In this document: positions 4,078 through 29,871 of the stretch, piece by piece | Layout of the letters: every line of letters starts with the position of its first letter | Numbering within the stretch: the first letter of the stretch is position 1 | From: Geotalea daltonii FRC-32 | GTDB lineage: Bacteria; Desulfobacterota; Desulfuromonadia; Geobacterales; Geobacteraceae | Direction of reading: 5' to 3' | NCBI RefSeq assembly: GCF_000022265.1 | Contig: NC_011979.1 | Span: forward strand, 3,300,001-3,332,000 | Length of the DNA stretch: 32,000 nt | Notes under the pieces: model-generated | Database searches by the model: none | Told to the model about the DNA's origin: nothing | The model's input: only the letters and a program-made list of their open reading frames with translations | Program-made: the position numbers and the translations under genes

Positions 4078-5184
4078 TTAAACCGCCGTCTCCTCCTTGC
4101 TGTAATACACCTTGTTCTTGCCGAACACCTTGGCCTGGTAAAGCAGTGCATCGACCTTTTCGAATAATTGATCCTTCTTGTCGGCGTCGACCGGATAAGA
4201 GGCTACTCCCACACTGACAGTAACTCCATGTCCGGCAAGCTTGGTGAATTTTGTCGCCGTTTCCGTCTCGATTATCTGGCGAAGCCGCTCTGCAACCTGG
4301 AATGCCTGCTCAAGGCGAGTTTCAGGCAGAAGAACGATGAATTCCTCTCCTCCATAACGAAAGGCATAGTCAACCCCCCTGAGTGTTCCAGCTATGAGCT
4401 CGCCGATGGAGGTAAGGACCAGATCCCCTGTCGAATGACCATATCTGTCATTGAATTTTTTAAAGTCATCAACATCAAGCATGATAATGGACAGATCCTT
4501 GTGATAGCGTTTACATCTGCCCATTTCAATGCTGAAAATATGGTGAAAATGGCGGTGGTTGTACAGACCGGTAAGGGCATCGGTTATGGCAAGAAGCTTT
4601 GTCCTGTTGTGCAGCTTGGCATTATAAATGGCCATGGCGGCAAATGAGGAAAGTACCGATAGAAGATTCATCCGCTCCTTGTCGAAGACACGGGGAACAA
4701 AATCGTCCAGGTACAGGACCCCCATCACCCGATCGCCAAAGGTAAGGGGAACGCAGACCAGCGACTGGATCCCTTCCCTGACCATCATGGGATTCTGGGA
4801 AAAATTGGCTGTAGCAGTATTTTCAACAAAGAAGATCTCCCTGGCCTTAAGTACCTGTTCCGTAAGTCCGCCAGGAGAGACATCCCAACGTTCCTTCTTG
4901 ATGAAGTCGGCAGTTAAACCCGAATGGGCATGCAGGGACAGCTCATGTTTGTTTTCGTCGTAAAGCCCCACGCTGCCGGCTGGCGTTTCAGCAAAATGCA
5001 TGGCGCTTGTCAGGATGGCCTGGAGCACCGTATCAAGATCCAAGGTGGAGACAACGGCCTTGGCCACTTCAATCAGCTCTTTCAGCGCTTTGACCTGCGC
5101 CTCCAGCGCGTCTCTTTCCTTATCCCTTGTCGCCATACTTACCCCGTTTGAATTAATCGGTAACTGATAGCACAATTTGTTCAC
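4078..5184 (-). CDS. GAF-domain diguanylate cyclase (GGDEF) with intact active site and I-site
   Basis: 368 aa. A coiled N-terminus, a GAF-like region, then a GGDEF domain with RYGGEEF and an RxxD I-site (RGVD) five residues upstream. An alternative start ATG at 5136 (MATRDKE) is preceded by GGGG. Confidence 0.85.
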   Translation of the reverse strand: MNKLCYQLPINSNGVSMATRDKERDALEAQVKALKELIEVAKAVVSTLDLDTVLQAILTSAMHFAETPAGSVGLYDENKHELSLHAHSGLTADFIKKERWDVSPGGLTEQVLKAREIFFVENTATANFSQNPMMVREGIQSLVCVPLTFGDRVMGVLYLDDFVPRVFDKERMNLLSVLSSFAAMAIYNAKLHNRTKLLAITDALTGLYNHRHFHHIFSIEMGRCKRYHKDLSIIMLDVDDFKKFNDRYGHSTGDLVLTSIGELIAGTLRGVDYAFRYGGEEFIVLLPETRLEQAFQVAERLRQIIETETATKFTKLAGHGVTVSVGVASYPVDADKKDQLFEKVDALLYQAKVFGKNKVYYSKEETAV

Positions 5185-15612: not shown

Positions 15613-16598
15613 AATCCCCCCCCTCGCCCGTGACGAATGCGCGGGTCGGCGAGTGCGTAGCCCACATCGGCCAGAAGATTGCCGAGCAGGGTCAGGACCG
15701 CACCAATGACGAGTATCCCCATGACCAGCGGATAGTCCCGGGCCATCACCCCCTGATAGAAGAGTTGTCCCATGCCGGGGATGGAAAAGATGCTCTCGAA
15801 AATGACACTGCCGCCGATCAGGCCAGGCACAGAAAGGCCCAGCAGGGTTATCACCGGCAGCAGGGCGTTACGCAGGGCGTGCTTATAAACCACCGTCCGC
15901 TCGGAAAGCCCTTTGGCCCTGGCGGTGGTGATGTAATCCTGGCCGAGGGTATCGATCATGCCGCTCCTCATGTACCTTGACAACCCGGCCAGACTGCCGA
16001 ATGTGGCAACACTGACCGGCAGGACAAGATGTTTGGCCAGGTCCCACAACTGCCACCAGAAGCCGTGGGTTGCATAACCGAGGGAATGAAGACCTGAAAT
16101 GGGCAGCCAGCCGAGCTTGATGCCGAACAGGTACATGAGGATCAGGCTGAGCCAAAACAGCGGCGTTGCAAAGCCGAGGAAGACGAAAACCGTCGTCCAG
16201 CGGTCGAGAGGCCCATTGCGGTGGGTCGCAGCCATGACACCGATGGGTATGGCCAGGGCAAATTCAAGGATCAGCGAGATGATGTTCAGATTGATGGTGA
16301 TGGGGAGTCTTTCCCGGATCTTGGCCGCCACCGGTCGGCCATCGGGGGAGAAAGAGTTGCCGAAATCCAGGCGGGCCAGACGGGATACCCAGCGGTAATA
16401 CTGGACATGGATCGGCTTGTCCAGCTCGTAGTATTTCCGCAAGCGGTCCCTGGTCTCAGCTGACACTTTGGGATTCATGGCCACCTGCATCTCCACCGGT
16501 TCACCAGGGGTAAGGTGGATGACGCCGAAGGTAATGACGGTAATACCGATAAGCAGCGGTATCATCAGCAACATACGCTTTGCAAGATAGTAGATCAT
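15609..16598 (-). CDS. ABC transporter permease, OppB/DppB family
   Basis: Start ATG at 16598 ([14 protein letters not shown]) overlaps the SBP stop (ATGA). Motif [27 protein letters not shown]. Confidence 0.88.
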
Positions 16599-18214
16599 CA
16601 GTAGAGCTGCTCCTCCCTTGGAACATACCACCTGATGAAATTATACATGATTCCCGCCGGCGCCGGTTCTATCCCGCGAAACCGGGCATTTACGGTGGGC
16701 AATGCATCGGGCACATAGAGGAAGGTATAGGGTTGCTCTTCGGCCAGGATATCCTGGATGCGGAAATAGCAGCGCTTGCGCTCCTTCAAATCGAATGTGG
16801 AGCGTCCTTTTTCAATGAGCTGATCGACCTCTCTGTTTTTGAAACCGATGAAATTGAGCTCTCTGGGGCCGGTCTTGCTGGAATGCCAGACATCGAAAAG
16901 GTCTGGGTCGGGAGGAATGGACCACCCCATGATAATCGCTTCGAAATCCCCCTTGTCGATGAAATTCTTCAGGAACGATGCCCACTCCACCACCCTGACC
17001 TTAACATTGATGCCGACGGCTTTCAGGCGCTGTTGGATGATCAGAGCGGTCTTCAGGCGCAGGTCGTTTCCCTGATTGGTAAGGATGGTAAAGGAAAAGG
17101 GCTTGCCGTCTTTTACCAGCATGCCGGCTGAATTCAATTTCCATCCGGCCTCGGCCAGAAGTTTTCGTGCCCGGTCTGGATTATAGTCAAAATCTCCGAT
17201 ATCTGTTTTATGGGGCCAGGTACCCGGCTTGTATGGGCCATGGGCCACTTGCCCCATGCCGAGCAGGACCCCTTGAATGATCTCGTCCTTGTTGATGGCC
17301 GAGGACATGGCTTGCCGCACCCTTTTGTCCCGAAACAGTGGATGGCGCAGATTATAGCCCAGATAAGTGTAAATCGAAGCGGGATACCGGTACTTGTTAA
17401 ACCTGGAGAGAAATTCGGGTGTATCGGTCTGCCGCTGGTACTGCACCGGGTTCAGTCCCATGTAATCAAGCCCCCCTGCCTTCAGTTCCATATACATGGT
17501 TGAGCTGTCGGGAATGATGCGGTAGACGTAACGGTCGATCCGCGGCCGCCCCTCGAAGTAGTGGTGGTTGGATTCCAAAACCAGCTGCTGCCCGGCAGTC
17601 CACTCCTTGAACTTGTAGGGACCGGTTCCGACAGGATTGCGGCTCAACTCACTTTTGGTTATATCCTTCCCTTCCAGCAGGTGGGCAGGAAGAATTGATT
17701 GATCCCATGATTCCAAGGCAGGCGCGAAGGGCTTATCGTAGGTGACACGGAAGGTGTATGGATCTAGTGCCTCGGCCCGCTTCACCTGCTTGAAATTTTC
17801 GGCATAGGCGGTGGGCGTTTTCGGATCGATGGTCACTCGATAGGTATAAAGGACATCACGGGAGGTAAAGGGATGCCCGTCATGCCAGGTTACCCCTTTA
17901 CGCAGATGAAAGGTAATGGTCAGACCGTCTCTGGAAACATCCCATGATTGGGCAAGTTCTCCCTCCAGTTTCAGGTTTTTGTCATACCTGACAAGGCCGT
18001 TGTAGATCAGTCCGGCAATATCACGGGAAGCGGAATCAGAAGCCAGGATGGGAACAAGTGTGGAAGGTTCGCCGATGGAGCCGATAATGATAGCGTCTCC
18101 GTATGCGGGGGTACCGGCGTCCCTTGTGGTGGTTTCTGGTAATTTTTTATCCGTGCAGGATACAAGGAGGGTGAAAAATAACAGCCAGAGAGAGACTATC
18201 AGGCCGATCCTCAT
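16598..18214 (-). CDS. ABC transporter substrate-binding lipoprotein, family 5 (OppA/DppA/NikA-like)
   Basis: 538 aa. Lipobox LLVSC. Family-5 SBP length and motifs ([18 protein letters not shown]). The start overlaps the TPR gene stop (ATGA). Confidence 0.85.
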
Positions 18215-19932
18215 TTTTCACCGGTCTCAGCCATTATTTTTTTTATTTTTTCGGCAATGCTTCTGTTGTCAGGTTCAAGTTTCAGGGCGCGACGGAATCC
18301 GGCCAGGGCCTTGCGGTACTCTTTTTTTGCATAGTAGACATCTGCCAGGTGACTGATAACAGTGGCATCATCATCCACCAGTTCCACTGCCCGCTCCAGT
18401 TGTCGCACCGCCTGATCGTAATGCTTCATCTTGAAGTAGACCCAGCCCAGACTGTCAATGATGAAGCCGTCGTCAGGCCTTAGCGAAGAAGCCTTTTTCA
18501 GGTACTGCAGTGCCTCATCAAGGTTGACACCCAGTTCCGCGTAGGTATAACCCAGGTAGTTCAATGCCTGCACATCGTTTGGCGTCAACTGTAAAACCTT
18601 CTTCATCCGGGCGATTGAAGCATCCTTGTTGCCAATCTTGTCATAGAGAACACCCATGCGGAAATTGAGACGCGGGTCGCTGGGAAATCTGTCATCAATC
18701 TCGGAAAGCACCTGCAGACCATCAACAAAACGATCCATGGACTCGTAGAGTCCAGCCAGATTCAGATAAAGCTCAATCTTGGTCGGTTGTTCAGCAATGG
18801 ATTCCTTGAGAAGCTGTATTCCCTTTGCTTCCTGGCCCATTTCCTTGTACAGGTACGCCAGATGCCCAACTGCGTCATAATAATAAGTCGATGAAGTCGG
18901 GATTTTTTTAAACTCTTCTATGGCAGTTTCAAAATCTTCCATTTCCTCATAGGTGGATGCCAGATAGTACCTGACCTGGTAGGCCTCCGGATCTTGGCGC
19001 AGAATGTCGCAGAACTCGGTAATCGCATCCTCGTAACGCTCCATCTCAAGCAGGATCAGTCCCAGCTTGCGGTGAGATTCCTGCCCCCCGACATTATTCC
19101 TCGCCATATCCTGCAACAGTATCAGGGCTGACTCCATATCTTTATTCTGTATATAGAGCTGTACCAGATGCTGGACAACTGTGTAATTGACAGGATTTAT
19201 CTTTAGCAGTTCCTTATAGGCATTGATGGCATCCTTTGTCAGACCTTGCATTTCCTGGGTAATAGCAAGATCAATAAATGCTTGGTCAAAGTCAGGTTTC
19301 AACTCAACTGCTTTTTTGTAATATTTGATCGCTTCGTTAGACAGTTTCATCTGGTCATATGTTTTTCCCAGATAGTAATAGCCCAACGCAGAATCGGGTG
19401 AAACTTTTATCAGTGCTTTCAGTGTATTGACAGCACCCTCATATTCAAATGTTTTCAAATAGGCAATGGCCAGATGAAGATAGATGTCTTCCTTGGCAGG
19501 TTCAAGCTCTATGGCTTTCTTGTAATAGGGTATGGCATCCTTGTCACGTTGCAGTGCCACCAGGATATTTCCGGCAAGAATCTGGGCCTCGGCAAACTCA
19601 GGATCGAGTTTTATGGCCTTTTCACAGGCTTGCAGAGCATCCTGGTAGCGGTTCATCTGCAGATAAATCTGGGCTTCGGCCTTATGAATATAAGCCGCCT
19701 GCGGGTCTGCCTCGGCAGCTGCCTGCAGAAGTGACAGAGCTCCATCCAGGTCACCCTCTAGGAGATGGAGACGGGACAGGGAGAAAATGTACCTGGCTCG
19801 TGATTCAATTATATTAATTGAAGGCTGGACAGCCTGTGGCTGAAGGGACGGTGGGGTCTGGGCATGATTGGCAGCGCATCCCGGGAAGATGATGCAGAGC
19901 AAGGGAAGGATGAGGTAAAACTTGTTTTTCAT
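18211..19932 (-). CDS. TPR-repeat lipoprotein
   Basis: Start ATG at 19932 (MKNKFYLILPLLCIIFPGCA, lipobox). About 14 consecutive 34-aa TPR units (A..Y..AL.L.P....A). Confidence 0.8.
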   Translation of the reverse strand: MKNKFYLILPLLCIIFPGCAANHAQTPPSLQPQAVQPSINIIESRARYIFSLSRLHLLEGDLDGALSLLQAAAEADPQAAYIHKAEAQIYLQMNRYQDALQACEKAIKLDPEFAEAQILAGNILVALQRDKDAIPYYKKAIELEPAKEDIYLHLAIAYLKTFEYEGAVNTLKALIKVSPDSALGYYYLGKTYDQMKLSNEAIKYYKKAVELKPDFDQAFIDLAITQEMQGLTKDAINAYKELLKINPVNYTVVQHLVQLYIQNKDMESALILLQDMARNNVGGQESHRKLGLILLEMERYEDAITEFCDILRQDPEAYQVRYYLASTYEEMEDFETAIEEFKKIPTSSTYYYDAVGHLAYLYKEMGQEAKGIQLLKESIAEQPTKIELYLNLAGLYESMDRFVDGLQVLSEIDDRFPSDPRLNFRMGVLYDKIGNKDASIARMKKVLQLTPNDVQALNYLGYTYAELGVNLDEALQYLKKASSLRPDDGFIIDSLGWVYFKMKHYDQAVRQLERAVELVDDDATVISHLADVYYAKKEYRKALAGFRRALKLEPDNRSIAEKIKKIMAETGEK

Positions 19933-20157
19933 GTAATACTTTCCGGTTAAGAAACAGCCTCTGGATAAGGTCATATGGATGGCATTCGACTAGATGTTTT
20001 TATAAGCACCACCTGCCACGGTGGAGAATTAGCAGCACATGAAAAGCTAACATAAATAGGGAATAGCGTCAAACAAACTTTATCATTTTCCGCCGGTTGC
20101 CATGCAGGGTTAATGTGATACCATTTGCAAATGAAATCAAAAGCTTAAGGACTGCCA

Positions 20158-21720
20158 ATGGCTCAAAAGTGGATAAGATCATTGCTGAATCTGCGAGCCT
20201 TCCCTGAAAAAACATCCTCAGTAAAACTCCTGCAGACCCATGTGTCATTTCTTCTTATAACCGACCATTATGTCTATAAGATCAAAAAACCTGTCAATTT
20301 CGGTTTTCTCGATTTTACCACCATGGATCGAAGGCGCTTTTACTGCCAGGAAGAGGTCCGTCTGAATCGTCGTCTTTGTCCAGATATTTATCTGGGTGTT
20401 GTAGAGATCAGGAAAACCCGGTCAGGAATTTTCATCGACGGAGAAGGCAGGATAGTCGACTATGCCGTAAAGATGAAAAGACTGCCGGAAGAGCGAATGC
20501 TGCATGTCCTACTCAGGGAAAATAATGTTTCGGAAATGGACATGCGTCGCATTGCAGCGACTATTGCCGATTTTCATAGGGCTGCAGAACGCAACCCTGA
20601 AACAGACAGCTATGGCAGCCTCGACAGCATAATTTACAACTGGGAAGAAAATTTTCACCAGTTGCAAGAGTTTGTCGGCATTTCGATTTCCGGGTGTCAG
20701 CTGCAGTTTCTCAAGTCATGGGTAAGCAGCTTCATTGATCAAAACCGGCACCTGTTTCTGGAAAGAACCGAAAAAGGTTTCATCAGGGAATGTGACGGTG
20801 ACATACACTCAGAGAATATATGCCTCACTGATACAGTCTGCATTTTTGATTGCATTGAGTTCAATAAACGATTCCGTTGCTGTGACACAGCTGCAGATCT
20901 GGCTTTTCTGCTCATGGACCTGGACTACAACAGAAAGAGCTACCTGGGTGATGTTCTGCTGGATGAATACCTGTTGCAGACCGGGGATAAGGGACTGACG
21001 GCGTTGATTGATTTCTACAAGACCTATCGTGCCGTTGTCCGAGGCAAGGTGGAAAGCTTCAAACTGCAAGAGCCGGAGATTCCTGCGGGGGAAAAAGAGT
21101 TGGCCGGACAAAGGGCGAGCCTTTATTTCCATCTGGCACGGGGCTACCAGTTGCGGCAACGACTTAAGCCTACGCTTTTCATAACCTGTGGCCTGATGGG
21201 GAGCGGCAAAAGCTCATTGACCAAGGCACTGGCATTGGAATTGGGACTTGAAACCACTGTTTCGGATGCCATAAGAAAAGAAATTGCCGAATCGGCAAAG
21301 GACAGAAGTGACTACGGTGAAGGGATATATAGCCAAAGCTGGACAGATGCAACCTACAAAGAACTTCTTATTCGCAGTGAACATGCCCTGGCTGCAGGAA
21401 ACAGCATCATCGTCGATGCCACATTCCGACGCAGGTCAGATCGTTTGGCGTTCAGACTTGTGGCAGAAAAACTGGGCGTTGATTTCGTTATTATCTCATT
21501 GTCTTGTCCCGATCAAATCACCAAAAAGCGCCTTATGCAGCGCGATAAGGACCCTCTGGCATTATCCGACGGCAGATGGGATCTGTTCCACCGGCAAAAG
21601 TCAGAGTTTCAGCCGTTGGAAGAAAATGAAGGGAAAACAATTCCCATTGATAGTTCCGCCCCTTTATTGGATAATATCGATCATCTTCTCGGTAAACTGG
21701 AGCTGATCCAATGCGCATGA
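20158..21720 (+). CDS. Fusion protein: aminoglycoside-phosphotransferase-like kinase fold plus C-terminal P-loop (AAA_33-type) kinase domain
   Basis: 520 aa. Catalytic-loop-like DGDIHSEN (DxxxxN) and FDCIEF...DLAFLLMDL. Then Walker A GLMGSGKS and IIVDATFRRR. Confidence 0.7.
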   Translation: MAQKWIRSLLNLRAFPEKTSSVKLLQTHVSFLLITDHYVYKIKKPVNFGFLDFTTMDRRRFYCQEEVRLNRRLCPDIYLGVVEIRKTRSGIFIDGEGRIVDYAVKMKRLPEERMLHVLLRENNVSEMDMRRIAATIADFHRAAERNPETDSYGSLDSIIYNWEENFHQLQEFVGISISGCQLQFLKSWVSSFIDQNRHLFLERTEKGFIRECDGDIHSENICLTDTVCIFDCIEFNKRFRCCDTAADLAFLLMDLDYNRKSYLGDVLLDEYLLQTGDKGLTALIDFYKTYRAVVRGKVESFKLQEPEIPAGEKELAGQRASLYFHLARGYQLRQRLKPTLFITCGLMGSGKSSLTKALALELGLETTVSDAIRKEIAESAKDRSDYGEGIYSQSWTDATYKELLIRSEHALAAGNSIIVDATFRRRSDRLAFRLVAEKLGVDFVIISLSCPDQITKKRLMQRDKDPLALSDGRWDLFHRQKSEFQPLEENEGKTIPIDSSAPLLDNIDHLLGKLELIQCA

Positions 21721-21968
21721 AACTCAAACAGTTGCTTTTGCTGAGTCTGCGGACCAGAGAGTCATGGGTGATCTTTTTCATTCTGGGGATCATCATGATG
21801 AATTATCCCTTCATATCCATTTTCAACAAGCCGATTTACTTCTTTGACCTGCCTCTTCTTTACCTTTATTTGCAACTGGGCTGGCTCATCTCCATCTTTG
21901 TCATCTTCCTTTTCACCAAAGCAAATCATTTTGCCGACAAGAACAACAACCACAAGGGGCGCAGTTAA
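21711..21968 (+). CDS. Small two-TM membrane protein (possible SSS accessory subunit)
   Basis: 85 aa with two hydrophobic helices. ATG 21711 or 21717 overlaps the upstream stop (ATGA), and its stop overlaps the next start (TAATG). Confidence 0.5.
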   Translation: MRMKLKQLLLLSLRTRESWVIFFILGIIMMNYPFISIFNKPIYFFDLPLLYLYLQLGWLISIFVIFLFTKANHFADKNNNHKGRS

Positions 21969-24900
21969 TGGTCAGTGCCGAACTGGTCTGGGGGATATCA
22001 ATCCTCTATATAGCTCTCCTCTTTCTGGTAGCTTACCTGGCTGACAAAAAGCAGAGAGAAGGCCAAAGCATTACCTCCAATGCAGTTGTCTATTCTCTTT
22101 CAATCGCCGTTTATGCCACATCCTGGACCTTTTACGGCAGCGTAGGCAAGGCAGCCACAACCGGTCTGGATTTCATACTCATCTATCTGGGGCCTTCACT
22201 GACAGCCTTTTCCTGGTGGTTTCTGCTACGCAAGATCATCCGGGTAACCAAAGAAAACAACACCACATCACTGGCCGACTTCGTCAGCTCTCGCTATGGC
22301 AAGTCCCAGTGGCTTGGCGCACTGGTTACCATCATCTCCATTACCGGTATAATGCCCTACATCGCACTGCAACTCAAAGCTGTTTCCAGCGCCTTTTCCA
22401 TCCTGACTGGCCATCCGGATTTCCATCTGCGTTTCATGGACAGCATTTCCCTCCCCTCACCCCACCCAGGCTTTTTTTCCGCCCTGATACTGGCTGCTTT
22501 CAGCGTCATTTTCGGCGCCCGGCACCTCGTGTCATCGGAACGTCATGAGGGGATGGTTGCAGCCATTGCAGTTGAATCCATAGTCAAACTCGTGGCTTTT
22601 CTCACCGTCGGCATCTTTGTCACCTATTTCCTCTTTGACGGCATCGGCGACATTTTCCAACGCATGTACGTGAAAGATCCTGTCCTTACTGAACAACTGA
22701 TAACCTTAGGTGATGAACAGGAAACCTCCTATACAACTTTGTTCACCATGCTGTATCTGTCAATGGGGGCTATCATGTTTCTCCCGAGACAGTTTCAGAT
22801 AATGGCCATAGAGAACTCTTCAGAAAAACACATCACCAAAGCCATGTGGCTTTTCCCCTTCTACATGTTTCTGATCAACATCTTCGTCATGCCCATCGCA
22901 ATGGGTGGCATTCTCATCACCGGCAGCAATCTCAATTCAGATTACTTCGTCCTGACTATCCCTTTACAGACAGGAAACCAGTGGATAGCGCTCATTGCCT
23001 ATATTGGCGGTTTTTCCGCAGCCGCCGGCATGGTGATGGTTGAATCGGTCACCATTTCAACCATGCTGCTCAATCATGTCATCATGCCGATCGTAATAAG
23101 ACTGAAACCGCGAACCTGGTTTCCTGAGCTGCTCATCAACACCAAGAGGGGCGGGATCTTCCTGGTGGTCTTTCTCGGCTACTTCTATCAGAATATCGTC
23201 GGCGAGACATATATGCTTGTGACCATGGGGCTCATTTCCTTTGCCGCCGCCGCCCAGTTCGCCCCTGCCGTGCTCGGCGGCCTCTACTGGCACCGTGGCA
23301 ACAAAGTCGGCGCCATCACCGGTATGTTCCTCGGCTTTATCGTCTGGTTTTACACTTTGCTGGTCCCTTCATTTATAAGATCCGGATGGTGGAACAGCGA
23401 CATCATGACCAACGGACCGTTCGGGCTCCGCTTTCTGAGGCCCACTGAACTCTTCGGCCTTACCGGGTTCGACATGTGGAGTCATGCCCTGTTCTGGAGC
23501 CTCTTTTTCAACTTGGGCACATATCTGATACTCTCCATCCTGACAGATCAGGACGAAAAAGAACAGGAGCAGGCAAGGAGATTCATTGATGTCTTATCCC
23601 CCGAAAGGGGCAAGGCTCGATGGGAAACCAAGCGTCTTTCCAAGCCGGTGACCATTCTGCAGTTCGTAAACCTGATGGCGAAATTTATCGGTGAAGCCCA
23701 GGCCCATGCGGCAATCAGCGACTACATAGGCAACAGGGAGATTGACAGCCGGGGTGGAGTTTCAGAGTTCGAGCTGCCCGACCTGAAGCGCTTCATTGAA
23801 AAGACTTTGGCCGGTTCCCTTGGCGCTGCAGCGGCGGGGGCCGTTGTCGAAAGCTATCTCACCGACGTCGGTTCGAAGATGGAGTCGGTCTACGACATAT
23901 TCAGCACTGTCCGCACCTCCCTCGACCAGAGCAGAGAGGCGCTTTTCGTAAGGCTCAGGGCATCGGAGATCATGAACCGCTCCCTGGATCTGAAAATCAT
24001 CATGAAAGACCTGCTGGAATTGTTGCAGAAGGAGTTCAAATTCGATCTTTGCATAATCAGGCTTGTGGACGAAAAAGGCATTTTGACCGTCACTGCCTAT
24101 ATCGGACCTGAAGATCAGCAGATAACGAAGAACAACTGGGTTCCTGAAATAGATACCCACATCGGGGAAGCATTTCTCAGCAACAGAACCGAATTTGTCA
24201 ACGACACCCGATACCTGACCAAGCAGAAATCAAAGGAGATCATGGAACGTGAAGGGATAAAATCCTTCGCCCACATTCCCATCGCCAGCGAAGGTGAACC
24301 GCCGGTCGGCATACTCTCAGTATTCTCCAAGTCGATTATCGGATTATTTACCGAACCTTTCCTCCAACTGCTGGGAAGCCTTGCCGGCCAGCTTGCCCAG
24401 GCAGTCAGGATCGTTTCGGAGCGTGAAGCAAAGGAGAAGGAACGGCAACAGAAAGAGGCAGCCCTGTTGGAAAACGCACGGGTTGTACGGGACATGGAGA
24501 TTGCCAAACAGATACAGCTTTCACTGCTGCCCGCTTCTCCCCCCGATCTGCCGGGGGTGCGCTTTGCCAGTTGCTGCGTTCCTGCCGCACATGTGGGTGG
24601 TGATTATTATGATTTCTTTGTTCGTGGTAAAGACAAGGTTGACCTGATAATCGCCGATGTTTCCGGACACAGTGTGGGAGCCGCACTGATCATGGTCGAG
24701 ACACGTAGCGTTCTCAGGGCACAGGTACCACTGACCACATCCAGCAGTGAAGTCCTTGCCTCGCTGAATGGGCTACTGTATGAGGACTTGACCAGGGCGG
24801 AACTTTTCATCACCATGTTTTATGCCAGTTACGATGCAGGCACCAGACTTCTCCGCTATGCAAATGCGGGTCACAACCCGCCATTGATCATGAACCCGCG

Positions 24901-25210
24901 AGGATCAGCCTGCATCGAACTGGATGCAGAAGGGCTCATACTCGGCATAAACCGCTCAGTTTCCTTCGAAGAAAAGCTATTTCAGCTGCATGCGGGTGAT
25001 CTGGTACTATTGTATACGGATGGTATCATAGAGGCACAAAACGACGCAGGAGAACTTTTTGGCGTGGACAGGCTCTGCATGATCCTCAATGGGATGTCTC
25101 AGGAATCACCCGACAGAATTATGGAGAAGGTGCTGGCTGAAGTTACTCAGTTTGCCGGGTCTAAACCACTGGAAGATGACATCTCAATGATAATAATGAA
25201 GATCGACTGA
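21968..25210 (+). CDS. Sensor phosphatase: SLC5/sodium:solute-symporter-like membrane domain - STAC-like linker - GAF - PP2C/SpoIIE (RsbU-type) phosphatase
   Basis: 1080 aa with about 13 TM helices (aa 1-530) and an SSS-sensor-like N-terminus (LLFLVAYLADKK). FIEKTLAGSLGAAAAGAVVESYL is STAC-like. GAF spans about aa 650-800. PP2C motifs ADVSGHSVGAAL, YANAGHNPP, LYTDGIIEAQ, DDISMII. Confidence 0.85.
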   Translation: MVSAELVWGISILYIALLFLVAYLADKKQREGQSITSNAVVYSLSIAVYATSWTFYGSVGKAATTGLDFILIYLGPSLTAFSWWFLLRKIIRVTKENNTTSLADFVSSRYGKSQWLGALVTIISITGIMPYIALQLKAVSSAFSILTGHPDFHLRFMDSISLPSPHPGFFSALILAAFSVIFGARHLVSSERHEGMVAAIAVESIVKLVAFLTVGIFVTYFLFDGIGDIFQRMYVKDPVLTEQLITLGDEQETSYTTLFTMLYLSMGAIMFLPRQFQIMAIENSSEKHITKAMWLFPFYMFLINIFVMPIAMGGILITGSNLNSDYFVLTIPLQTGNQWIALIAYIGGFSAAAGMVMVESVTISTMLLNHVIMPIVIRLKPRTWFPELLINTKRGGIFLVVFLGYFYQNIVGETYMLVTMGLISFAAAAQFAPAVLGGLYWHRGNKVGAITGMFLGFIVWFYTLLVPSFIRSGWWNSDIMTNGPFGLRFLRPTELFGLTGFDMWSHALFWSLFFNLGTYLILSILTDQDEKEQEQARRFIDVLSPERGKARWETKRLSKPVTILQFVNLMAKFIGEAQAHAAISDYIGNREIDSRGGVSEFELPDLKRFIEKTLAGSLGAAAAGAVVESYLTDVGSKMESVYDIFSTVRTSLDQSREALFVRLRASEIMNRSLDLKIIMKDLLELLQKEFKFDLCIIRLVDEKGILTVTAYIGPEDQQITKNNWVPEIDTHIGEAFLSNRTEFVNDTRYLTKQKSKEIMEREGIKSFAHIPIASEGEPPVGILSVFSKSIIGLFTEPFLQLLGSLAGQLAQAVRIVSEREAKEKERQQKEAALLENARVVRDMEIAKQIQLSLLPASPPDLPGVRFASCCVPAAHVGGDYYDFFVRGKDKVDLIIADVSGHSVGAALIMVETRSVLRAQVPLTTSSSEVLASLNGLLYEDLTRAELFITMFYASYDAGTRLLRYANAGHNPPLIMNPRGSACIELDAEGLILGINRSVSFEEKLFQLHAGDLVLLYTDGIIEAQNDAGELFGVDRLCMILNGMSQESPDRIMEKVLAEVTQFAGSKPLEDDISMIIMKID

Positions 25211-25320
25211 CAAAAAAGCGGGGCGCAGCTAAAAACAATTTGTTGAAGGTGGTGCTGCGGTGTTATAAACTATGAAATTAATGATACAACAATCATATCC
25301 CGTTTCAGAGGGGGCACATC

Positions 25321-25656
25321 ATGAATCTGCGGACTGAACTAAAGAATGACATAGTGATCATTTATGTTAATGAGGAAAGACTTGACGCCCATAATTCAGG
25401 TGAATTGAAGGTCGAGGTGCAGAAGCTTTTCGAACAGGGCCGAAAAAACATGCTCATCGACCTGAAAGATGTTCGCTTCATCGACAGTTCCGGGCTGGGA
25501 GCCCTCGTCTCCGGATTCAAAAACGCCATTTCCCATCAGGGCAACCTGAAGCTTTCGACCCTGCAGTCACAGGTAAAATCAATGTTCGAACTGACCAGGT
25601 TGCACAGGGTTTTTGAAATATTTCCCTCTACCGCAGAAGCACTTGAAAACTTCTAA
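25321..25656 (+). CDS. STAS-domain anti-sigma-factor antagonist (RsbV/SpoIIAA family)
   Basis: 111 aa. Conserved phosphorylatable serine context FIDSSGLGALV. RBS GAGGGGG. Confidence 0.88.
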   Translation: MNLRTELKNDIVIIYVNEERLDAHNSGELKVEVQKLFEQGRKNMLIDLKDVRFIDSSGLGALVSGFKNAISHQGNLKLSTLQSQVKSMFELTRLHRVFEIFPSTAEALENF

Positions 25657-25669
25657 ATGTGAGGCTCAG

Positions 25670-26095
25670 ATGGAAAGAAACGAGATAGAGGTAGATATCA
25701 AGGTCCCCAATCAGACCCGCTACTTGAGTCTCATAGGCCGGATCGGTGAAGACATTGCCAAGGAACTGGTCAGATATACAGGCGACAGGGATACGCTGGC
25801 CTATCATCTGAATCTTGTGCTGACAGAAGCCATGGTAAATGCCATAAAACATGCCGGCAGTGAAGATTCAGACAACCTGGTGCACATCATCATCAATATC
25901 TGTGAAAGCGAGCTGACAATCAAGGTGTTCGATTCGGGACAAGGGTTCGATATCAATATCATCCCCCCCCCCGATTTCGAGGAACTGGAAGACCGGGGTC
26001 GCGGCATTTTCATGATAAAATCGCTGATGGACTCAGTGTCTTACAAAAAAATGTGCGACGGCAACATTCTGGAAATGAAAAAGAAGCTGCAATAA
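25670..26095 (+). CDS. RsbW/SpoIIAB-type serine protein kinase (HATPase_c, anti-sigma-factor-like)
   Basis: ATG at 25670 after GAGG. N-box EAMVNAIKHA, G1 box FDSGQGF, G2 box GRGIFMIKSL. 141 aa. Confidence 0.85.
   Translation: MERNEIEVDIKVPNQTRYLSLIGRIGEDIAKELVRYTGDRDTLAYHLNLVLTEAMVNAIKHAGSEDSDNLVHIIINICESELTIKVFDSGQGFDINIIPPPDFEELEDRGRGIFMIKSLMDSVSYKKMCDGNILEMKKKLQ
25963..25972 (+). repeat. C10 homopolymer inside the RsbW-like kinase CDS
   Basis: ATCATCCCCCCCCCCGAT encodes I-I-P-P-P-D, between the G1 and G2 ATP-binding boxes. It is the longest G/C homopolymer I found in the window. Confidence 0.95.
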
Positions 26096-26096
26096 G

Positions 26097-26885
26097 TCAG
26101 TTGGAATGCCTTTTGTCCCTGAGGTACAGCCACACGATCATCCCGCACCCAAGCAACGCCATCGGCAAGCTTAGCATCTGCCCCATGGAGAACCTGCCCG
26201 CAACAAGGCCAAGCTGGGCATCCGGTTCCCTGAAGAACTCAACGATAAACCTGAACAGGCCATACAAACCGATAAATGACCAGAAAACCGCCCCCTCCGG
26301 ATGTTTCCGTCTACCTAAAAGCCATAGTATCGAAAACATTAGTGGACCCTCCAGTATGGCCTCATACAACTGGGAAGGATGACGCGGCAAGTTTCCTGCA
26401 CCGGGAAATACCACTCCCCATGGCACGTTGGTAACGCGCCCGTAAAGTTCTCCGTTGATGAAATTGCCTATCCTGCCGAGACAAAGACCGACCGGCCCGG
26501 CAATGAAGCCGATGTCGGCAATCTGATAGAAGCCGATCCTTTTCTTTCTGATATAATAAAAACCAGCTGCGATGGCACCCAACAGTCCTCCATGGAAGGA
26601 CATCCCGCCATGCCAGACGGCAAATATTTCAAGGGGTTTTGCCAGATATACCTGCAGATCGTAGAATAGTATGTAGCCTAGACGACCACCCAATATTACA
26701 CCGAGAGCCACAGTGAAGATAAGATCTGCCACATCGTCCTTGCTCAAGGGAAGATGCTTTTTTTTCACCCCTGCCTTGATTATGAAATACGCGGCAATGA
26801 ATCCGATGATGTACATGAGACCGTACCAGCGGAACTGAAGGGGACCGATGCGCAGAAAGACGGGATCGAAATCCGGAAATTTCAT
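26097..26885 (-). CDS. lgt: Prolipoprotein diacylglyceryl transferase
   Basis: Start ATG at 26885 (MKFPDFDPVFLRIGPLQFRWYGLMY) with GGAG upstream. Motifs GGRLGY, GRIGNFINGELYG, HPSQLYEA. The track ORF extends 42 codons further upstream without support. Confidence 0.9.
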   Translation of the reverse strand: MKFPDFDPVFLRIGPLQFRWYGLMYIIGFIAAYFIIKAGVKKKHLPLSKDDVADLIFTVALGVILGGRLGYILFYDLQVYLAKPLEIFAVWHGGMSFHGGLLGAIAAGFYYIRKKRIGFYQIADIGFIAGPVGLCLGRIGNFINGELYGRVTNVPWGVVFPGAGNLPRHPSQLYEAILEGPLMFSILWLLGRRKHPEGAVFWSFIGLYGLFRFIVEFFREPDAQLGLVAGRFSMGQMLSLPMALLGCGMIVWLYLRDKRHSN

Positions 26886-27033: not shown

Positions 27034-27043
27034 TTTCAGGAAA

Positions 27044-27205
27044 TTCCTCGTTAGGAAGAGGCGTTAGCACAAACAGAAGCTACTGCCCAGAAACGTCGAA
27101 AGACGCCAATGCGGTAGACCAGATTCAGTCGGATTAAGGCTTTATCTAAGGTAGCTGGTGGTGGTTCACCTACGTTGTGCTCTGCTAAAACTCAAACCAG
27201 GGGAA
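27044..27205 (+). ncRNA. M-box (ykoK leader) Mg2+-sensing riboswitch aptamer
   Basis: Conserved M-box blocks in the right order: CGUUAGG-AGAGGC, CUGCCCAGAAACGUCGAAAGACGCCAAUG, UUAAGGC, GUAGCUGG, ACGUUGUGCUCUGCUAAAACUC. This closely parallels the B. subtilis mgtE leader as I recall it. Confidence 0.85.
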
Positions 27206-27226
27206 AATGGTGTCCTTTTGCGCATG

Positions 27227-27257
27227 AGGCCCTTTCTCCCTGAAAGGGCCTTTTCTT
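27227..27257 (+). terminator. Intrinsic terminator forming the M-box expression platform
   Basis: AGGCCCTTT-CTCCCTG-AAAGGGCCT followed by TTTTCTT, immediately upstream of the CDS. Confidence 0.8.
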
Positions 27258-27281
27258 GTGAATACAGACCAAAAGGACATA

Positions 27282-28538
27282 ATGAGCGAGATCTTTCTCA
27301 GTACCGTGCTGGGAAAGACCGTCATCAACGCCCAGGGGCACGAGATCGGCAAATTATGGGACCTGATCATGGTTCCCGGCGAAGTGTTTCCCCAAGTCTC
27401 GCACCTTTTGGTAAAAAAGGGCTCGCGGGTCCTGGCCCTGCCCTGGAAACGCATCTCCCTTTTCAACCGTTATGTCATTTCCGTATCCGGCACCTCAAGC
27501 CATACTCCCGAATATCTGCCCAGAGAGAACGAGATCCTCGTCAAACGCCACATCCTCGACAAACAGATTGTGGACGTCAACGGGGCGAAGGTGGTTCGGG
27601 TCAATGACCTGAAGCTTGGCAGCTACAAGGACCACCTCTGCATATTCTTCGTCGATATCGGCTTCAGAGGGCTGCTGCGCCGCCTTGGGTATGAACGCCT
27701 CGGAGAAAAAATTGCCAGCTTTATGAAGATCAAGCTGGCACACCAGCATATCAGCTGGGAATATGTGCAACTGCTGGAAATGAACCTGTCCCGGCTGACT
27801 CTGACCGTTGCCCGGGAACAGATGCAGGAACTTCACCCTGCCGACCTTGCCCATATCATCTCCAGAATACCTGCCAAAAACATCCAGACCGTTTTGAACT
27901 CCCTGGATACGGAAACCGCAGGTGAAGCCATTCATGAACTGGAACCAGAGCTCAGAAGCCGCATCATCAGCCAGCTGGACAGTGAGCAGGCCTCTGACAT
28001 CCTGGAAGAAATGGATCCTGACGAAGCGGCCGACGTCCTCGGCGACCTCCCCGAAGAAAAGGCCCAGGAGCTGCTGGGTTTGATGGATGAGGAAGAGGCT
28101 GAGGATATTCAGGAACTCATGGAACACGAAGAAGATACCGCCGGCGGACTGATGAACAGTGAGTTTCTGTCTGTATCCAGCGAGCTCATGGTTGCTGATG
28201 CCATGAAGGTGGTAAGGCTTTTGGCCCCGGATGTGGAAACGGTCTATTACATTTATGTTGTGGATAAGGAAGAGCGCTTACAGGGGGTCATCAGTCTGAA
28301 GGAATTAATTCTGGCCCATGAGGAAGAACCTGTCTCCGAACTCATGACCACCAATCTGAAGACAGTGGGTGTTGAATCCACCCCGGAAGAAATTCTCGAA
28401 ATCATAGCCAAGTACAACCTGATAGCTGTGCCGGTTCTTGACAAGGAAGAAAAGATGGCAGGGTTGGTAACGGTTGACGATGTCCTGGAAATGTTCCTGC
28501 CTTACGCCCTGAAACGCAGACGATATCACCACCATTAG
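27282..28538 (+). CDS. Soluble PRC-barrel - MgtE_N - tandem CBS protein (MgtE cytosolic module without the membrane domain)
   Basis: ATG at 27282 with AAGGA 4 nt upstream; the track's GTG at 27258 sits in the terminator tail. PRC-like N-terminus (LGKTVINAQGHEIGKLWDLIM). Acidic MgtE_N helices (LHPADLAHIISRIP...DPDEAADVLGDLPEEKAQELL). Two CBS motifs (GVISLKELI, GLVTVDDVLE). It ends without TM segments. Confidence 0.75.
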   Translation: MSEIFLSTVLGKTVINAQGHEIGKLWDLIMVPGEVFPQVSHLLVKKGSRVLALPWKRISLFNRYVISVSGTSSHTPEYLPRENEILVKRHILDKQIVDVNGAKVVRVNDLKLGSYKDHLCIFFVDIGFRGLLRRLGYERLGEKIASFMKIKLAHQHISWEYVQLLEMNLSRLTLTVAREQMQELHPADLAHIISRIPAKNIQTVLNSLDTETAGEAIHELEPELRSRIISQLDSEQASDILEEMDPDEAADVLGDLPEEKAQELLGLMDEEEAEDIQELMEHEEDTAGGLMNSEFLSVSSELMVADAMKVVRLLAPDVETVYYIYVVDKEERLQGVISLKELILAHEEEPVSELMTTNLKTVGVESTPEEILEIIAKYNLIAVPVLDKEEKMAGLVTVDDVLEMFLPYALKRRRYHHH

Positions 28539-28572: not shown

Positions 28573-29871
28573 ATGTTTACCGGCATCAGCATAACGAAGT
28601 TGTTCAAGCCCATCCGCAAGGTGAACAGAAAGAACATCTTTCTCTTTCTCGCCATCCTCGGGCCGGGAATAATTACCGCCAACGTGGATAACGATGCCGG
28701 CGGCATAACCACCTATTCACTGGCCGGCGCCCACTACGGCTACACCCTTCTTTGGGTCATGATCCCGACCATGATTGCCCTGGTTGTTATTCAGGAGATG
28801 TGCGCCCGCATGGGAGCGGTGACGGGCAAGGGGCTGTCGGACCTGATACGGGAGTCATTCGGCGTAAAGGTAACTTTCTATGTAATGATCGCCCTCCTGC
28901 TCACCAACATGGGCAACTCCGTTTCCGAATTCGCCGGAATTGCCGCCAGCCTTGAGTTGTTCGGCATCAGCAAATATGTGTCCGTCCCCATAAGTGCCGT
29001 CCTGGTATGGCTTCTGGTGGTGAAGGGCTCCTACAAGGTAGTGGAAAAGGTCTTCCTCGTGGCTTGCATGGTTTATATAGCCTACCCTGTCGCAGCATTC
29101 ATGGCCGGCCCCCAATGGGGCACAGTTCTTAAGGCAACCGTAGTCCCCAGTTTCCGCATGGACAGCGGCTACCTGATCACCCTCATCGGTGTCGTCGGTA
29201 CGACCATTGCTCCATGGATGCAGTTCTACCAGCAATCCGCCGTCGTCGAAAAGGGAATAACCATAGAACAGTACAGCTTTTCCCGGATGGATGTCATAGT
29301 CGGCTGCCTGATGGCCATCGTCGTCGCCTTTTTCATCGTCGTTGCCTGCGCCGCCACCATAAACCTGCAGGGGCTAAAGGTGGAGACCGCTGCAGATGCC
29401 GCTCTCGCCCTTAAACCCCTGGTGGGAGAGTATGCATCATCACTGTTCGCCTTCGGCCTTTTCAATGCTTCACTCTTTGCCGCCTGCATCCTCCCCCTTT
29501 CCACTTCCTACTACGTCTGCGAAGGAATGGGATGGGAGTCGGGGATCGACAAGGATTTCAGGCAGGCGCCCCAGTTTTTCTGGCTTTTCACCATCATCAT
29601 CGTCATCAGCGCGCTTACCATTCTCCTGCCCAACGTCCCACTGATCATGATCATGTTCATTTCGCAGGTGGTAAACGGCACAGTGCTTCCCTTCGTTCTC
29701 ATCTTCATGCTGCTCCTGATCAATGACAAAAGCCTGATGGGTAACCATACCAATGGTCATGTATTCAATTTTATTGCCTGGATCACCGTTGTTGTCATGA
29801 TTGGCCTGACGCTACTCATGACCGCAGATCTGCTGTCTCCCGGTGCAGTGGGAAGAATATTCGGGTTTTGA
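28573..29871 (+). CDS. NRAMP-related transporter with NRMT-type (Mg2+) binding-site substitutions
   Basis: 432 aa with about 11 TM helices and NRAMP-like GPGIITANVDNDAGGI...YGYTLLW. The canonical TM1 DPGN is DAGG (28693-28704). The canonical TM6 A-x-x-M-P-H is T-T-I-A-P-W (29200-29217). Confidence 0.8.
   Translation: MFTGISITKLFKPIRKVNRKNIFLFLAILGPGIITANVDNDAGGITTYSLAGAHYGYTLLWVMIPTMIALVVIQEMCARMGAVTGKGLSDLIRESFGVKVTFYVMIALLLTNMGNSVSEFAGIAASLELFGISKYVSVPISAVLVWLLVVKGSYKVVEKVFLVACMVYIAYPVAAFMAGPQWGTVLKATVVPSFRMDSGYLITLIGVVGTTIAPWMQFYQQSAVVEKGITIEQYSFSRMDVIVGCLMAIVVAFFIVVACAATINLQGLKVETAADAALALKPLVGEYASSLFAFGLFNASLFAACILPLSTSYYVCEGMGWESGIDKDFRQAPQFFWLFTIIIVISALTILLPNVPLIMIMFISQVVNGTVLPFVLIFMLLLINDKSLMGNHTNGHVFNFIAWITVVVMIGLTLLMTADLLSPGAVGRIFGF

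Follow-up and report, generated by a model that had tools for sequence, protein, structure and literature searches.

The DNA analysed here is a 32,000-nucleotide (nt) stretch of Geotalea daltonii FRC-32 (contig NC_011979.1, positions 3,300,001 to 3,332,000 of the forward strand), hereafter the window, and our subject is a block of five genes at window positions 20158-26095. We propose that this locus is a partner switch driven by a CbrA-type transporter-like sensor with a small membrane hairpin, and that its output lies elsewhere in the genome (probability about 0.68). The evidence comes mainly from the architecture of gene 3, from the distribution of gene 2 and from the conservation of gene order and of catalytic residues in relatives. 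The five genes, with protein lengths in amino acids (aa), are:

20158-21720, + strand: gene 1, 520 aa, two kinase-like domains fused
21711-21968 (alternative start 21717), + strand: gene 2, 85-aa two-helix membrane hairpin
21968-25210, + strand: gene 3, 1080 aa, SLC5-STAC-GAF-long helix-PP2C
25321-25656, + strand: gene 4, 111 aa, STAS protein
25670-26095, + strand: gene 5, 141 aa, RsbW/SpoIIAB-type kinase

The gene 3 protein, which is 99% identical to a protein encoded on a G. toluenoxydans contig, had been described as SLC5-GAF-PP2C in a first-pass annotation made from the sequence alone. Those three domains were recovered; the STAC domain, the long linker helix and the identity of the whole as a CbrA-type sensor had been missed. 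Residues 10-631 aligned over 622 residues (E = 6e-70) with residues 13-592 (of 606) of chain A of PDB entry 10ED, the cryo-electron microscopy structure of the Pseudomonas CbrX-CbrA SLC5-STAC domains, and this alignment extends across the STAC region. Pfam did not call the SLC5 domain in the gene 3 protein of the window. K207 aligns with CbrA K196, a lysine in the Na2 site, and is nearly invariant among orthologues. In the AlphaFold model (predicted local distance difference test, pLDDT, 77), a helical transmembrane (TM) bundle reaches to about residue 525 and is followed by four STAC helices (563-574, 576-587, 603-618 and 620-634), the GAF domain, a single 58-residue helix (796-853) and the PP2C domain (864-1079). 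The membrane domain fits the SLC5/SSS 13-TM type homologous to CbrA. The domains are placed as follows:

21968-23545, + strand: SLC5/SSS transporter-like membrane domain (gene 3 residues 1-526, by alignment to the CbrA structure)
23654-23869, + strand: STAC domain, four-helix bundle (residues 563-634)
23948-24406, + strand: GAF domain (residues 661-813; Pfam GAF_2, E = 1e-13)
24353-24526, + strand: long helix from GAF to PP2C (residues 796-853), presumed coiled-coil signal transmitter
24557-25210, + strand: PP2C/SpoIIE-type serine phosphatase domain (residues 864-1080; Pfam SpoIIE, E = 9e-53)

Residues 661-838 matched PDB entry 2qyb, a GAF-domain structure deposited as 'membrane protein, putative' (E = 2e-74), and the PDB relatives of the PP2C domain are RssB, Rv1364c and SpoIIE. 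Twenty-four orthologues, as distant as 34% identity, preserve the PP2C motifs GGDYYD (877-882), ADVSGH (896-901), TDG (1017-1019) and DD (1070-1071); within this set, the metal-binding residues D879, D882, D897, D1018, D1070 and D1071 are invariant and Y881 nearly so. For RsbU-type phosphatases with N-terminal GAF, PAS, REC or HAMP domains, a coiled-coil linker mechanism has been described (PMC12143880), and the modelled 58-residue helix of gene 3 fits such a dimeric coiled-coil transmission model.

To collect relatives of gene 3, 1.84 billion cluster representatives (50% identity) were searched exhaustively with HMMER, and the best 150 were considered. Near-full-length SLC5-STAC-GAF-PP2C proteins accounted for three of these 150 (P0361 from a Desulfuromonadales metagenome-assembled genome, P0362 and P0370). 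The five tested representatives sharing SLC5-STAC-GAF (P0366, P0367, P0368, P0375 and P0460) are HisKA-HATPase_c histidine kinases, and most of the other proteins have only the SLC5-STAC part in common with gene 3. On these counts, the PP2C output is a rare variant in a sensor family of mostly kinases. A histidine-kinase output (HisKA and HATPase_c) is absent from gene 3, where Pfam places GAF and SpoIIE instead. These alignments identify gene 3 as a sensor module of the CbrA SLC5-STAC type whose histidine kinase is replaced by GAF-PP2C. The SLC5-STAC-GAF histidine kinases P0368 and P0375/P0531 are named 'sigma-B regulation protein RsbU' by JGI, while Pfam finds HisKA and HATPase_c and no SpoIIE in them; the RsbU names were probably transferred in error on the strength of the GAF or SLC5 part.

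The small membrane protein encoded by gene 2 had been listed as a separate extra. Instead, its family is a companion of SLC5-STAC sensors, independent of the type of output. The protein, 100% identical to Geob_3038 of Geotalea daltonii FRC-32, has two hydrophobic segments and basic termini with a predicted N-in/C-in topology, and carries the UniRef name DUF3311. In Pfam, 10 of 40 gene 2 relatives matched DUF3311 at E <= 0.01 (the best at 27.2 bits, against a gathering cutoff of 30) and no other family was matched by any of the 40. DUF3311 genes adjoin SSS symporters (PMC9100948). We ran a hidden Markov model (HMM) of the gene 2 family against 6,393 small ORFs (open reading frames) of the comparison loci. 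Beyond the orthologous block, it matched only ORFs directly upstream of SLC5-STAC sensors (positions are those of the respective locus):

L097, 2776-7723: Deferrisomatales histidine kinase, gene 2 family ORF upstream (HMM, 2e-19)
L091: orphan SLC5-PP2C, gene 2 family ORF upstream (HMM, 7e-19)
L096, 1782-6087: histidine kinase on a metagenome contig, gene 2 family ORF upstream (HMM, 3e-16)
L095, 4792-10353: Chloroflexota histidine kinase, gene 2 family ORF upstream (HMM, 2e-10)
L005, 217-4426: Geomonas hybrid histidine kinase, gene 2 family ORF upstream (HMM, 3e-5)

Of these, L097, L095 and L005 come from metagenome-assembled genomes, and the histidine kinases in the list are of the SLC5-STAC(-GAF) type. 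The start of the sensor gene of P0381 is also overlapped, by an 81-aa gene. No gene 2-like ORF was found upstream of the SLC5-STAC-GAF histidine kinase of Desulfobacca (L094), and the pairing of hairpin and sensor is therefore frequent, not universal. Within the five-gene family, gene 2 is missing exactly where SLC5-STAC-GAF is missing, in the loci L023, L024 and L033 described below. This distribution suggests that gene 2 travels with the SLC5 domain, whatever the sensor output (a histidine kinase in four loci and PP2C in one), and gene 2 likely serves the gene 3 SLC5 domain as a CbrX-like accessory subunit. In the Chloroflexota locus L095, an acetyl-CoA synthetase gene stands after the kinase, recalling the control of acs by CrbS/R.

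Gene 4 encodes a single-domain STAS protein of the anti-anti-sigma type (Pfam STAS, E = 2e-20; TIGR00377, 77 bits against a cutoff of 53), which aligns with TM1442, RsbV and SpoIIAA. Ser56 of its DSSGLG motif corresponds to S58 of SpoIIAA and is the predicted phospho-acceptor. The gene 5 protein matched HATPase_c_2 (E = 8e-22), has RsbW as its best PDB match (6m36_A, E = 2e-9) and aligns also with SpoIIAB; its ATP-binding boxes are EAMVNAIKH (N-box), DSGQGF (G1) and GRGIF (G2). It remains under the equivalog cutoffs of the RsbW and SpoIIAB models of NCBIfam (53 against 145 bits). Its ATG at 25670 is preceded by GAGG and its orthologues are 140-148 aa long. On both counts, a start at TTG 25613, which would give a 160-aa protein overlapping the STAS gene, was rejected. 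The PP2C/STAS/RsbW trio had been read as complete, and this holds at the level of residues: because the catalytic or phospho-acceptor residues of all three proteins are intact, all the parts for phosphorylation-dependent partner switching are present. We infer from these sequences that phosphate would be exchanged among the gene 5 kinase, the gene 4 STAS protein and the PP2C domain of gene 3.

Gene order in relatives was followed by tblastn in 80 loci (37-59% identity) obtained by scanning metagenomes with an alignment of the gene 1 family, plus genome and look-up loci; for junction counts the start codon nearest the upstream stop was used. All five genes were found in order in 23 loci, that is in every related locus long enough, further loci ending inside the block. 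The objection that the genes might not be syntenic in relatives, raised with the first-pass annotation, therefore fails. The gene 1-gene 2 junction overlaps by 4 or 1 nt in 23 of 28 loci (with a gap of at most 1 nt in 26 of the 28) and the gene 2-gene 3 junction in 24 of 27. These overlaps are kept down to 42-44% identity for gene 1 and 48% for gene 3. Between genes 3 and 4 the spacer length is variable, at 10 to 224 nt depending on the locus. Wherever a locus of the clade extends far enough, the PP2C gene is succeeded by a STAS gene and a kinase gene. The order also withstands changed flanks: L036/37 and L092/93 are without OppBC and lgt (a carbonic anhydrase gene stands there instead), yet the five genes are kept with their overlaps.

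Three loci have an arrangement without sensor:

L023, 874-3244: gene 1, then a PP2C-only gene; the contig ends just past PP2C
L024, 5113-8367: gene 1, PP2C-only gene, STAS, kinase
L033, 3918-6845: gene 1, PP2C-only gene, STAS, kinase

In these loci, gene 1 abuts a PP2C-only gene of 254-267 aa (+1, -4 and +22 nt), and both gene 2 and SLC5-STAC-GAF are absent. Since the three are only 65-68% identical to each other, the sensor-less arrangement is stable. In 41 loci carrying distant gene 1 relatives (37-47% identity), no relatives of genes 2-5 were found; among 85 neighbouring ORFs scanned with Pfam there were no STAS and no RsbW-type proteins and one SpoIIE, the recurrent neighbours being NTPase_1, groES and metK/ahcY. 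The link of gene 1 to the module is therefore specific to the Geobacteraceae/Desulfuromonadales clade. Taken together, these observations show that STAS and kinase genes travel with PP2C within the Desulfuromonadales-type clade, and that the attachment of gene 1 is tight but clade-specific.

Divergent from gene 1 lie the genes of a TPR protein and of an SBP_bac_5 ('OppA'-like) protein (window 16598-19974, - strand), which overlap each other by 4 nt. This pair stays beside the five-gene block in L036/L037 and L092/L093 despite the loss of OppB/OppC and lgt, and may be functionally associated with the sensor.

Gene 1 had been read as a fusion of an APH-type and a P-loop kinase. The second part is well founded and the first is weakly supported by sequence. 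The two halves are:

gene 1 residues ~1-335: N-terminal half, with a eukaryotic-like/APH-type kinase look
gene 1 residues 340-486: C-terminal half, AAA_33 P-loop kinase (Pfam, E = 3e-23)

In the AlphaFold model (pLDDT 91.8), the C-terminal fold matched gluconokinase 3t61, Pnkp 4mde and 2rhm in Foldseek with probability 1.0, and a profile search found the same proteins. The sole long fold match of the N-terminal half was maltokinase 4u94 (TM 0.30/0.34). Pfam APH gave E = 0.92 for gene 1 and weak or faint matches in its orthologues, and searches of the PDB by sequence and by profile returned the P-loop half only, leaving the N-terminal domain without a solved sequence relative. A kinase fold of this half is thus suggested by the AlphaFold model, the 4u94 match, the weak APH matches of orthologues and a kinase-like motif. 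The invariant residues include K41/K43/K44, E65/E66, G214-D215-x-H217-xx-N220, E234 and those of the P-loop G345-x-x-G348-x-G350-K351 (GLMGSGKS), with D213 and D231 nearly invariant. The candidate catalytic loop reads D213-G-D215-IHSE-N220, and both domains retain their catalytic motifs. Orthologues are named 'bifunctional aminoglycoside phosphotransferase/ATP-binding protein' by NCBI and 'aminoglycoside phosphotransferase family enzyme/predicted kinase' by JGI. The proposal that gene 1 is a fourth member of the system stands as regards its clade-wide attachment; it does not stand for a general companion of partner switches, given the unrelated neighbours in the 41 distant loci. The earlier suggestion of a second kinase input or a target is a guess. 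Most simply, gene 1 is a lineage-specific accessory, be it an input modulator, a co-regulated enzyme or a target.

Upstream of the distant gene 1 relatives in several loci (L043, L045-L051, L055, L057, L060, L067 and others) stands a same-strand gene of ~170-215 aa, often with overlapping or near-zero gaps; NTPase_1 (PF03266) made up 8 of the 38 upstream neighbours scanned. Other distant loci have groES-groEL-sized genes, or metK/ahcY downstream. These neighbours may hint at the native context of the gene 1 family.

The junctions and flanks in the window, confirmed from the sequence as they had been described (five ORFs, ATGA at 21717-21720, TAATG at 21966-21970, a 13-nt gap and a convergent lgt gene), bear on transcription. 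The relevant intervals around the five genes are:

19975-20157: divergent intergenic region between the TPR gene (- strand) and gene 1, presumed promoter and leader of genes 1-3
25211-25320, + strand: gene 3-gene 4 spacer, with a candidate internal promoter inside
26097-26879, - strand: lgt, convergent to gene 5 (LGT domain, Pfam/NCBIfam)

The TGA of gene 1 occupies 21718-21720, within the ATGA read from the sequence. Gene 2 could start at ATG 21711 (10-nt overlap with gene 1) or at ATG 21717 (4-nt overlap); the former appears more likely because orthologues align from the first ATG (MRMKLK vs MWPKLK). The TAA of gene 2 (21966-21968) and the ATG of gene 3 (21968-21970) have one A in common, giving a 1-nt overlap. 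Genes 3 and 4 are separated by 110 nt and genes 4 and 5 by 13 nt. Upstream of gene 1, we found a single weak sigma-70-like match (20097-20124) and a Shine-Dalgarno sequence AAGGA 7 nt ahead of the ATG. Genes 1-3 are almost certainly co-translated.

The five-gene coupled operon of the first-pass annotation was supported in its gene 1-3 overlaps and left unproven as a single operon. No terminator-like hairpin was found on the + strand between genes 3 and 4, as had been noted from the absence of a visible terminator before the STAS gene. The spacer contains a candidate promoter, TTGTTG (25240-25245)-18 nt-TATAAA (25264-25269), of which the hexamers are retained in close Geotalea relatives while the remainder of the spacer is poorly conserved. 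Because this candidate precedes the STAS gene, a single five-gene transcript is only plausible, and a second promoter for genes 4-5 is possible. A sigma-54 promoter in the same spacer was rejected by eye, the GG/GC spacing being unsuitable. No riboswitch, leader RNA or other family was found by Rfam across the locus at E <= 1. The stops of gene 5 (+ strand) and lgt (- strand) lie 1 nt apart (window 26093-26099) with no terminator between, so that both transcripts must overlap at their 3' ends.

How would such a switch work? Gene 2 would bind the SLC5 domain of gene 3, as CbrX binds CbrA, where CbrX packs on TM3/TM8. The input would be substrate binding or transport by SLC5, a ligand of the cytoplasmic GAF domain, or both, and would be relayed via STAC, GAF and the coiled-coil linker to turn the PP2C dimer on or off. 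Active PP2C would strip from Ser56 of the STAS protein the phosphate placed there by gene 5; the unphosphorylated STAS protein would then capture the gene 5 kinase, or bind a target of its own, and an effector encoded elsewhere would be released or engaged. In agreement with the first-pass annotation, the ORFs of the window contained no sigma-factor domain, and none turned up in the called genes within 8-10 kb of the module in relatives. With no sigma factor linked, the effector would be either a sigma factor encoded at a distance or a target of another kind.

Several points weigh against this reading. The gene order in Geobacteraceae is not fully independent evidence, because the Opp, TPR and lgt flanks are also syntenic. 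L091, the most distant SLC5-PP2C (36% identity), has gene 2, but gene 1, STAS and kinase are not nearby. The SLC5 domain of CbrA was found dispensable for signal detection (PMC9100948, PMC6591292), and the signal here may therefore be cytoplasmic, sensed for example by GAF and not by the transporter domain. As for the hairpin, Pfam and NCBIfam gave no match for the gene 2 protein of the window, DUF3311 (PF11755) included, and a gene 2 profile built from 40 relatives found nothing in the PDB, 10ED included, at E <= 10, with the indexing of the 58-aa CbrX chain unverified. Sequence homology between gene 2 and CbrX being undetectable, what connects the two is their position, topology and partner, not a proven common descent. 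Finally, we found no publication on the locus (Geob_3037 to Geob_3041).

Alternative explanations differ first in what the switch would act on. Gene 5 could be an anti-sigma factor sequestering a sigma factor encoded elsewhere (e.g. of the sigma-28/FliA type or another of group 3), which the dephosphorylated STAS protein would free. The closest solved relatives of gene 5, RsbW and SpoIIAB, are true anti-sigma factors, NCBIfam gives sub-threshold matches to the models of both, and unlinked targets are known, as in the Chlamydia Rsb system (PMC4552016); but the scores are far under the equivalog cutoffs (53 vs 145 bits), and the lack of a sigma gene in the window and within 8-10 kb of the module in the relatives examined tells the other way. 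We hold this to be a real possibility, somewhat short of even odds. Alternatively, gene 4 could, by its phosphorylation state, control an enzyme, a transporter or a diguanylate cyclase, in the manner of HsbA, SypA or BtrV, with gene 5 serving only as its kinase. The same absence of a linked sigma factor favours this output; STAS/kinase/phosphatase modules without sigma are covered in reviews (PMC8256260, PMC6482189), and the sensor half comes from a family reporting nutrient or carbon status (CbrA, CrbS, RpuS). No candidate target is conserved beside the module, however, and the divergent neighbours that persist, TPR and SBP_bac_5, have no known tie to STAS proteins, which leaves a non-sigma output as a tentative proposal.

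Other alternatives concern what belongs to the system. Gene 1 could be an integral fourth component, as an activator or regulator of PP2C (as RsbT is for RsbU), a second STAS kinase or the regulated target. The conserved gene 1-2-3 overlaps, also in loci with altered flanks, the sensor-less lineage that keeps gene 1 abutting a PP2C-only gene, and the intact catalytic motifs of both kinase domains argue for it. This is nevertheless rather doubtful, given the 41 distant relatives among unrelated neighbours, the orphan SLC5-PP2C of L091 without gene 1 and the resemblance of the C-terminal domain to small-molecule and polynucleotide kinases, not protein kinases; moreover, the PP2C-only arrangement could be an internal deletion preserving an old junction. 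That gene 1 is a true fourth component, for example by gating PP2C as RsbT gates RsbU, and that the switch also acts on a non-sigma target is, as a whole, improbable. If true, it would explain why the sensor-less lineage retains gene 1 beside bare PP2C, STAS and kinase, and the switch would combine two signals, one from membrane transport and one cytoplasmic, the latter produced or sensed by the gene 1 kinase. The locus could also be a set of independent units, two or three in number, that sit together only by common inheritance: gene 1, a transporter with a regulatory tail (genes 2-3) and a switch served by another phosphatase (genes 4-5). The variable gene 3-gene 4 spacer (10-224 nt) with its promoter-like element, the synteny of the whole region within the family, including Opp, TPR and lgt, and the presence of genes 2-3 without genes 4-5 in L091 would agree with this. 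However, STAS and kinase follow PP2C even where lgt and OppBC are replaced (L092/93) or the sensor half is deleted (L024, L033), and partner switches are defined by just such a PP2C gene beside genes for STAS and an RsbW-type kinase. We therefore consider independent units very unlikely, and retain the partner switch driven by the CbrA-type sensor.

Elsewhere in the window, an M-box magnesium riboswitch (RF00380, 133.9 bits; 27040-27209, + strand) followed by a terminator-like hairpin (27226-27252) lies directly upstream of genes for a PRC/MgtE_N/CBS protein (27258-28538) and an Nramp transporter (28573-29871). These form a usual Mg-regulated transport operon with no relation to the partner-switch locus. 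A GAF-GGDEF diguanylate cyclase is encoded at 4078-5184 (- strand). PADLOC returned a single weak generic P-loop match, of gene 1 to VakA (E = 1e-4), and the locus is therefore not a defence system.

SLC5-STAC sensors such as CbrA are studied as rare couplers of nutrient transport and signalling, so far only with histidine-kinase outputs. In the present locus, an SLC5-STAC cassette and its hairpin subunit are joined to a partner switch that works through a serine phosphatase. CbrX has been described as conserved only within Pseudomonadaceae, whereas the hairpin family is widespread (Desulfuromonadales, Deferrisomatales, Chloroflexota); its distribution favours the view that kinases and PP2C phosphatases can exchange sensor modules via the helical linker. 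Each part is already known by itself: SLC5-STAC sensors, GAF-PP2C phosphatases and partner switches lacking a linked sigma factor. New are the combination of these parts, the broad occurrence of the hairpin family and the double kinase attached in one clade, none of which is a surprise in principle. Geobacteraceae and Desulfuromonadales are important for metal reduction and electricity-producing biofilms, and the module, conserved in their sampled loci, is a defined and testable system.

Modules without an adjoining sigma gene include Chlamydia RsbU/V/W, Pseudomonas HsbR/HsbA, Vibrio SypE/SypA, Bordetella BtrU/V/W and Synechocystis IcfG, and the Chlamydia phosphatase is likewise a membrane sensor. 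The locus described here differs from them by its SLC5-STAC sensor with hairpin subunit and its co-translated double kinase, neither of which, to our knowledge, occurs in any of those systems. With the RsbU/RsbV/RsbW and SpoIIE/SpoIIAA/SpoIIAB switches of Bacillus it shares the PP2C phosphatase, the STAS protein with its DSSGLG serine and the GHKL kinase, all with their catalytic residues, and the order phosphatase-STAS-kinase. Unlike in Bacillus, no sigma gene follows the kinase, and the phosphatase is a 13-TM sensor fusion instead of a soluble RsbT-activated or an FtsZ-associated protein. Gene 3 resembles C. difficile RsbZ in having GAF, a long helix and PP2C, but its GAF domain sits downstream of a membrane SLC5-STAC module.

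The gene 1 family may include the M. tuberculosis dormancy gene Rv2004c. This member of the DosR regulon combines COG2187 with a gluconate-kinase-like region (PMC1950094), a two-part make-up similar to that of gene 1 as judged by the literature description; unlike gene 1, Rv2004c has no known partner-switch link. SSS-GAF-PP2C_SIG(-HATPase_c) architectures of Actinobacteria, listed in a domain survey and not studied (PMC7918813), join SSS/SLC5, GAF and PP2C as gene 3 does. Those are, however, single polypeptides including a kinase-like domain, whereas here the kinase and the STAS protein are encoded individually, with genes 1 and 2 attached in addition.

The comparison closest to the sensor is that with CbrX-CbrA of Pseudomonas (and the related CrbS/R and RpuS/R). 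In CbrA, PAS and histidine kinase domains signal to a response regulator, whereas GAF and PP2C would signal here to a STAS/kinase switch; and gene 2, with 85 aa, is longer than CbrX (58 aa) and has no detectable sequence similarity to it. In common are the N-terminal 630 residues of gene 3, homologous to CbrA SLC5-STAC with the Na2-site lysine conserved, and a small two-helix membrane peptide encoded immediately upstream and overlapping the sensor gene.

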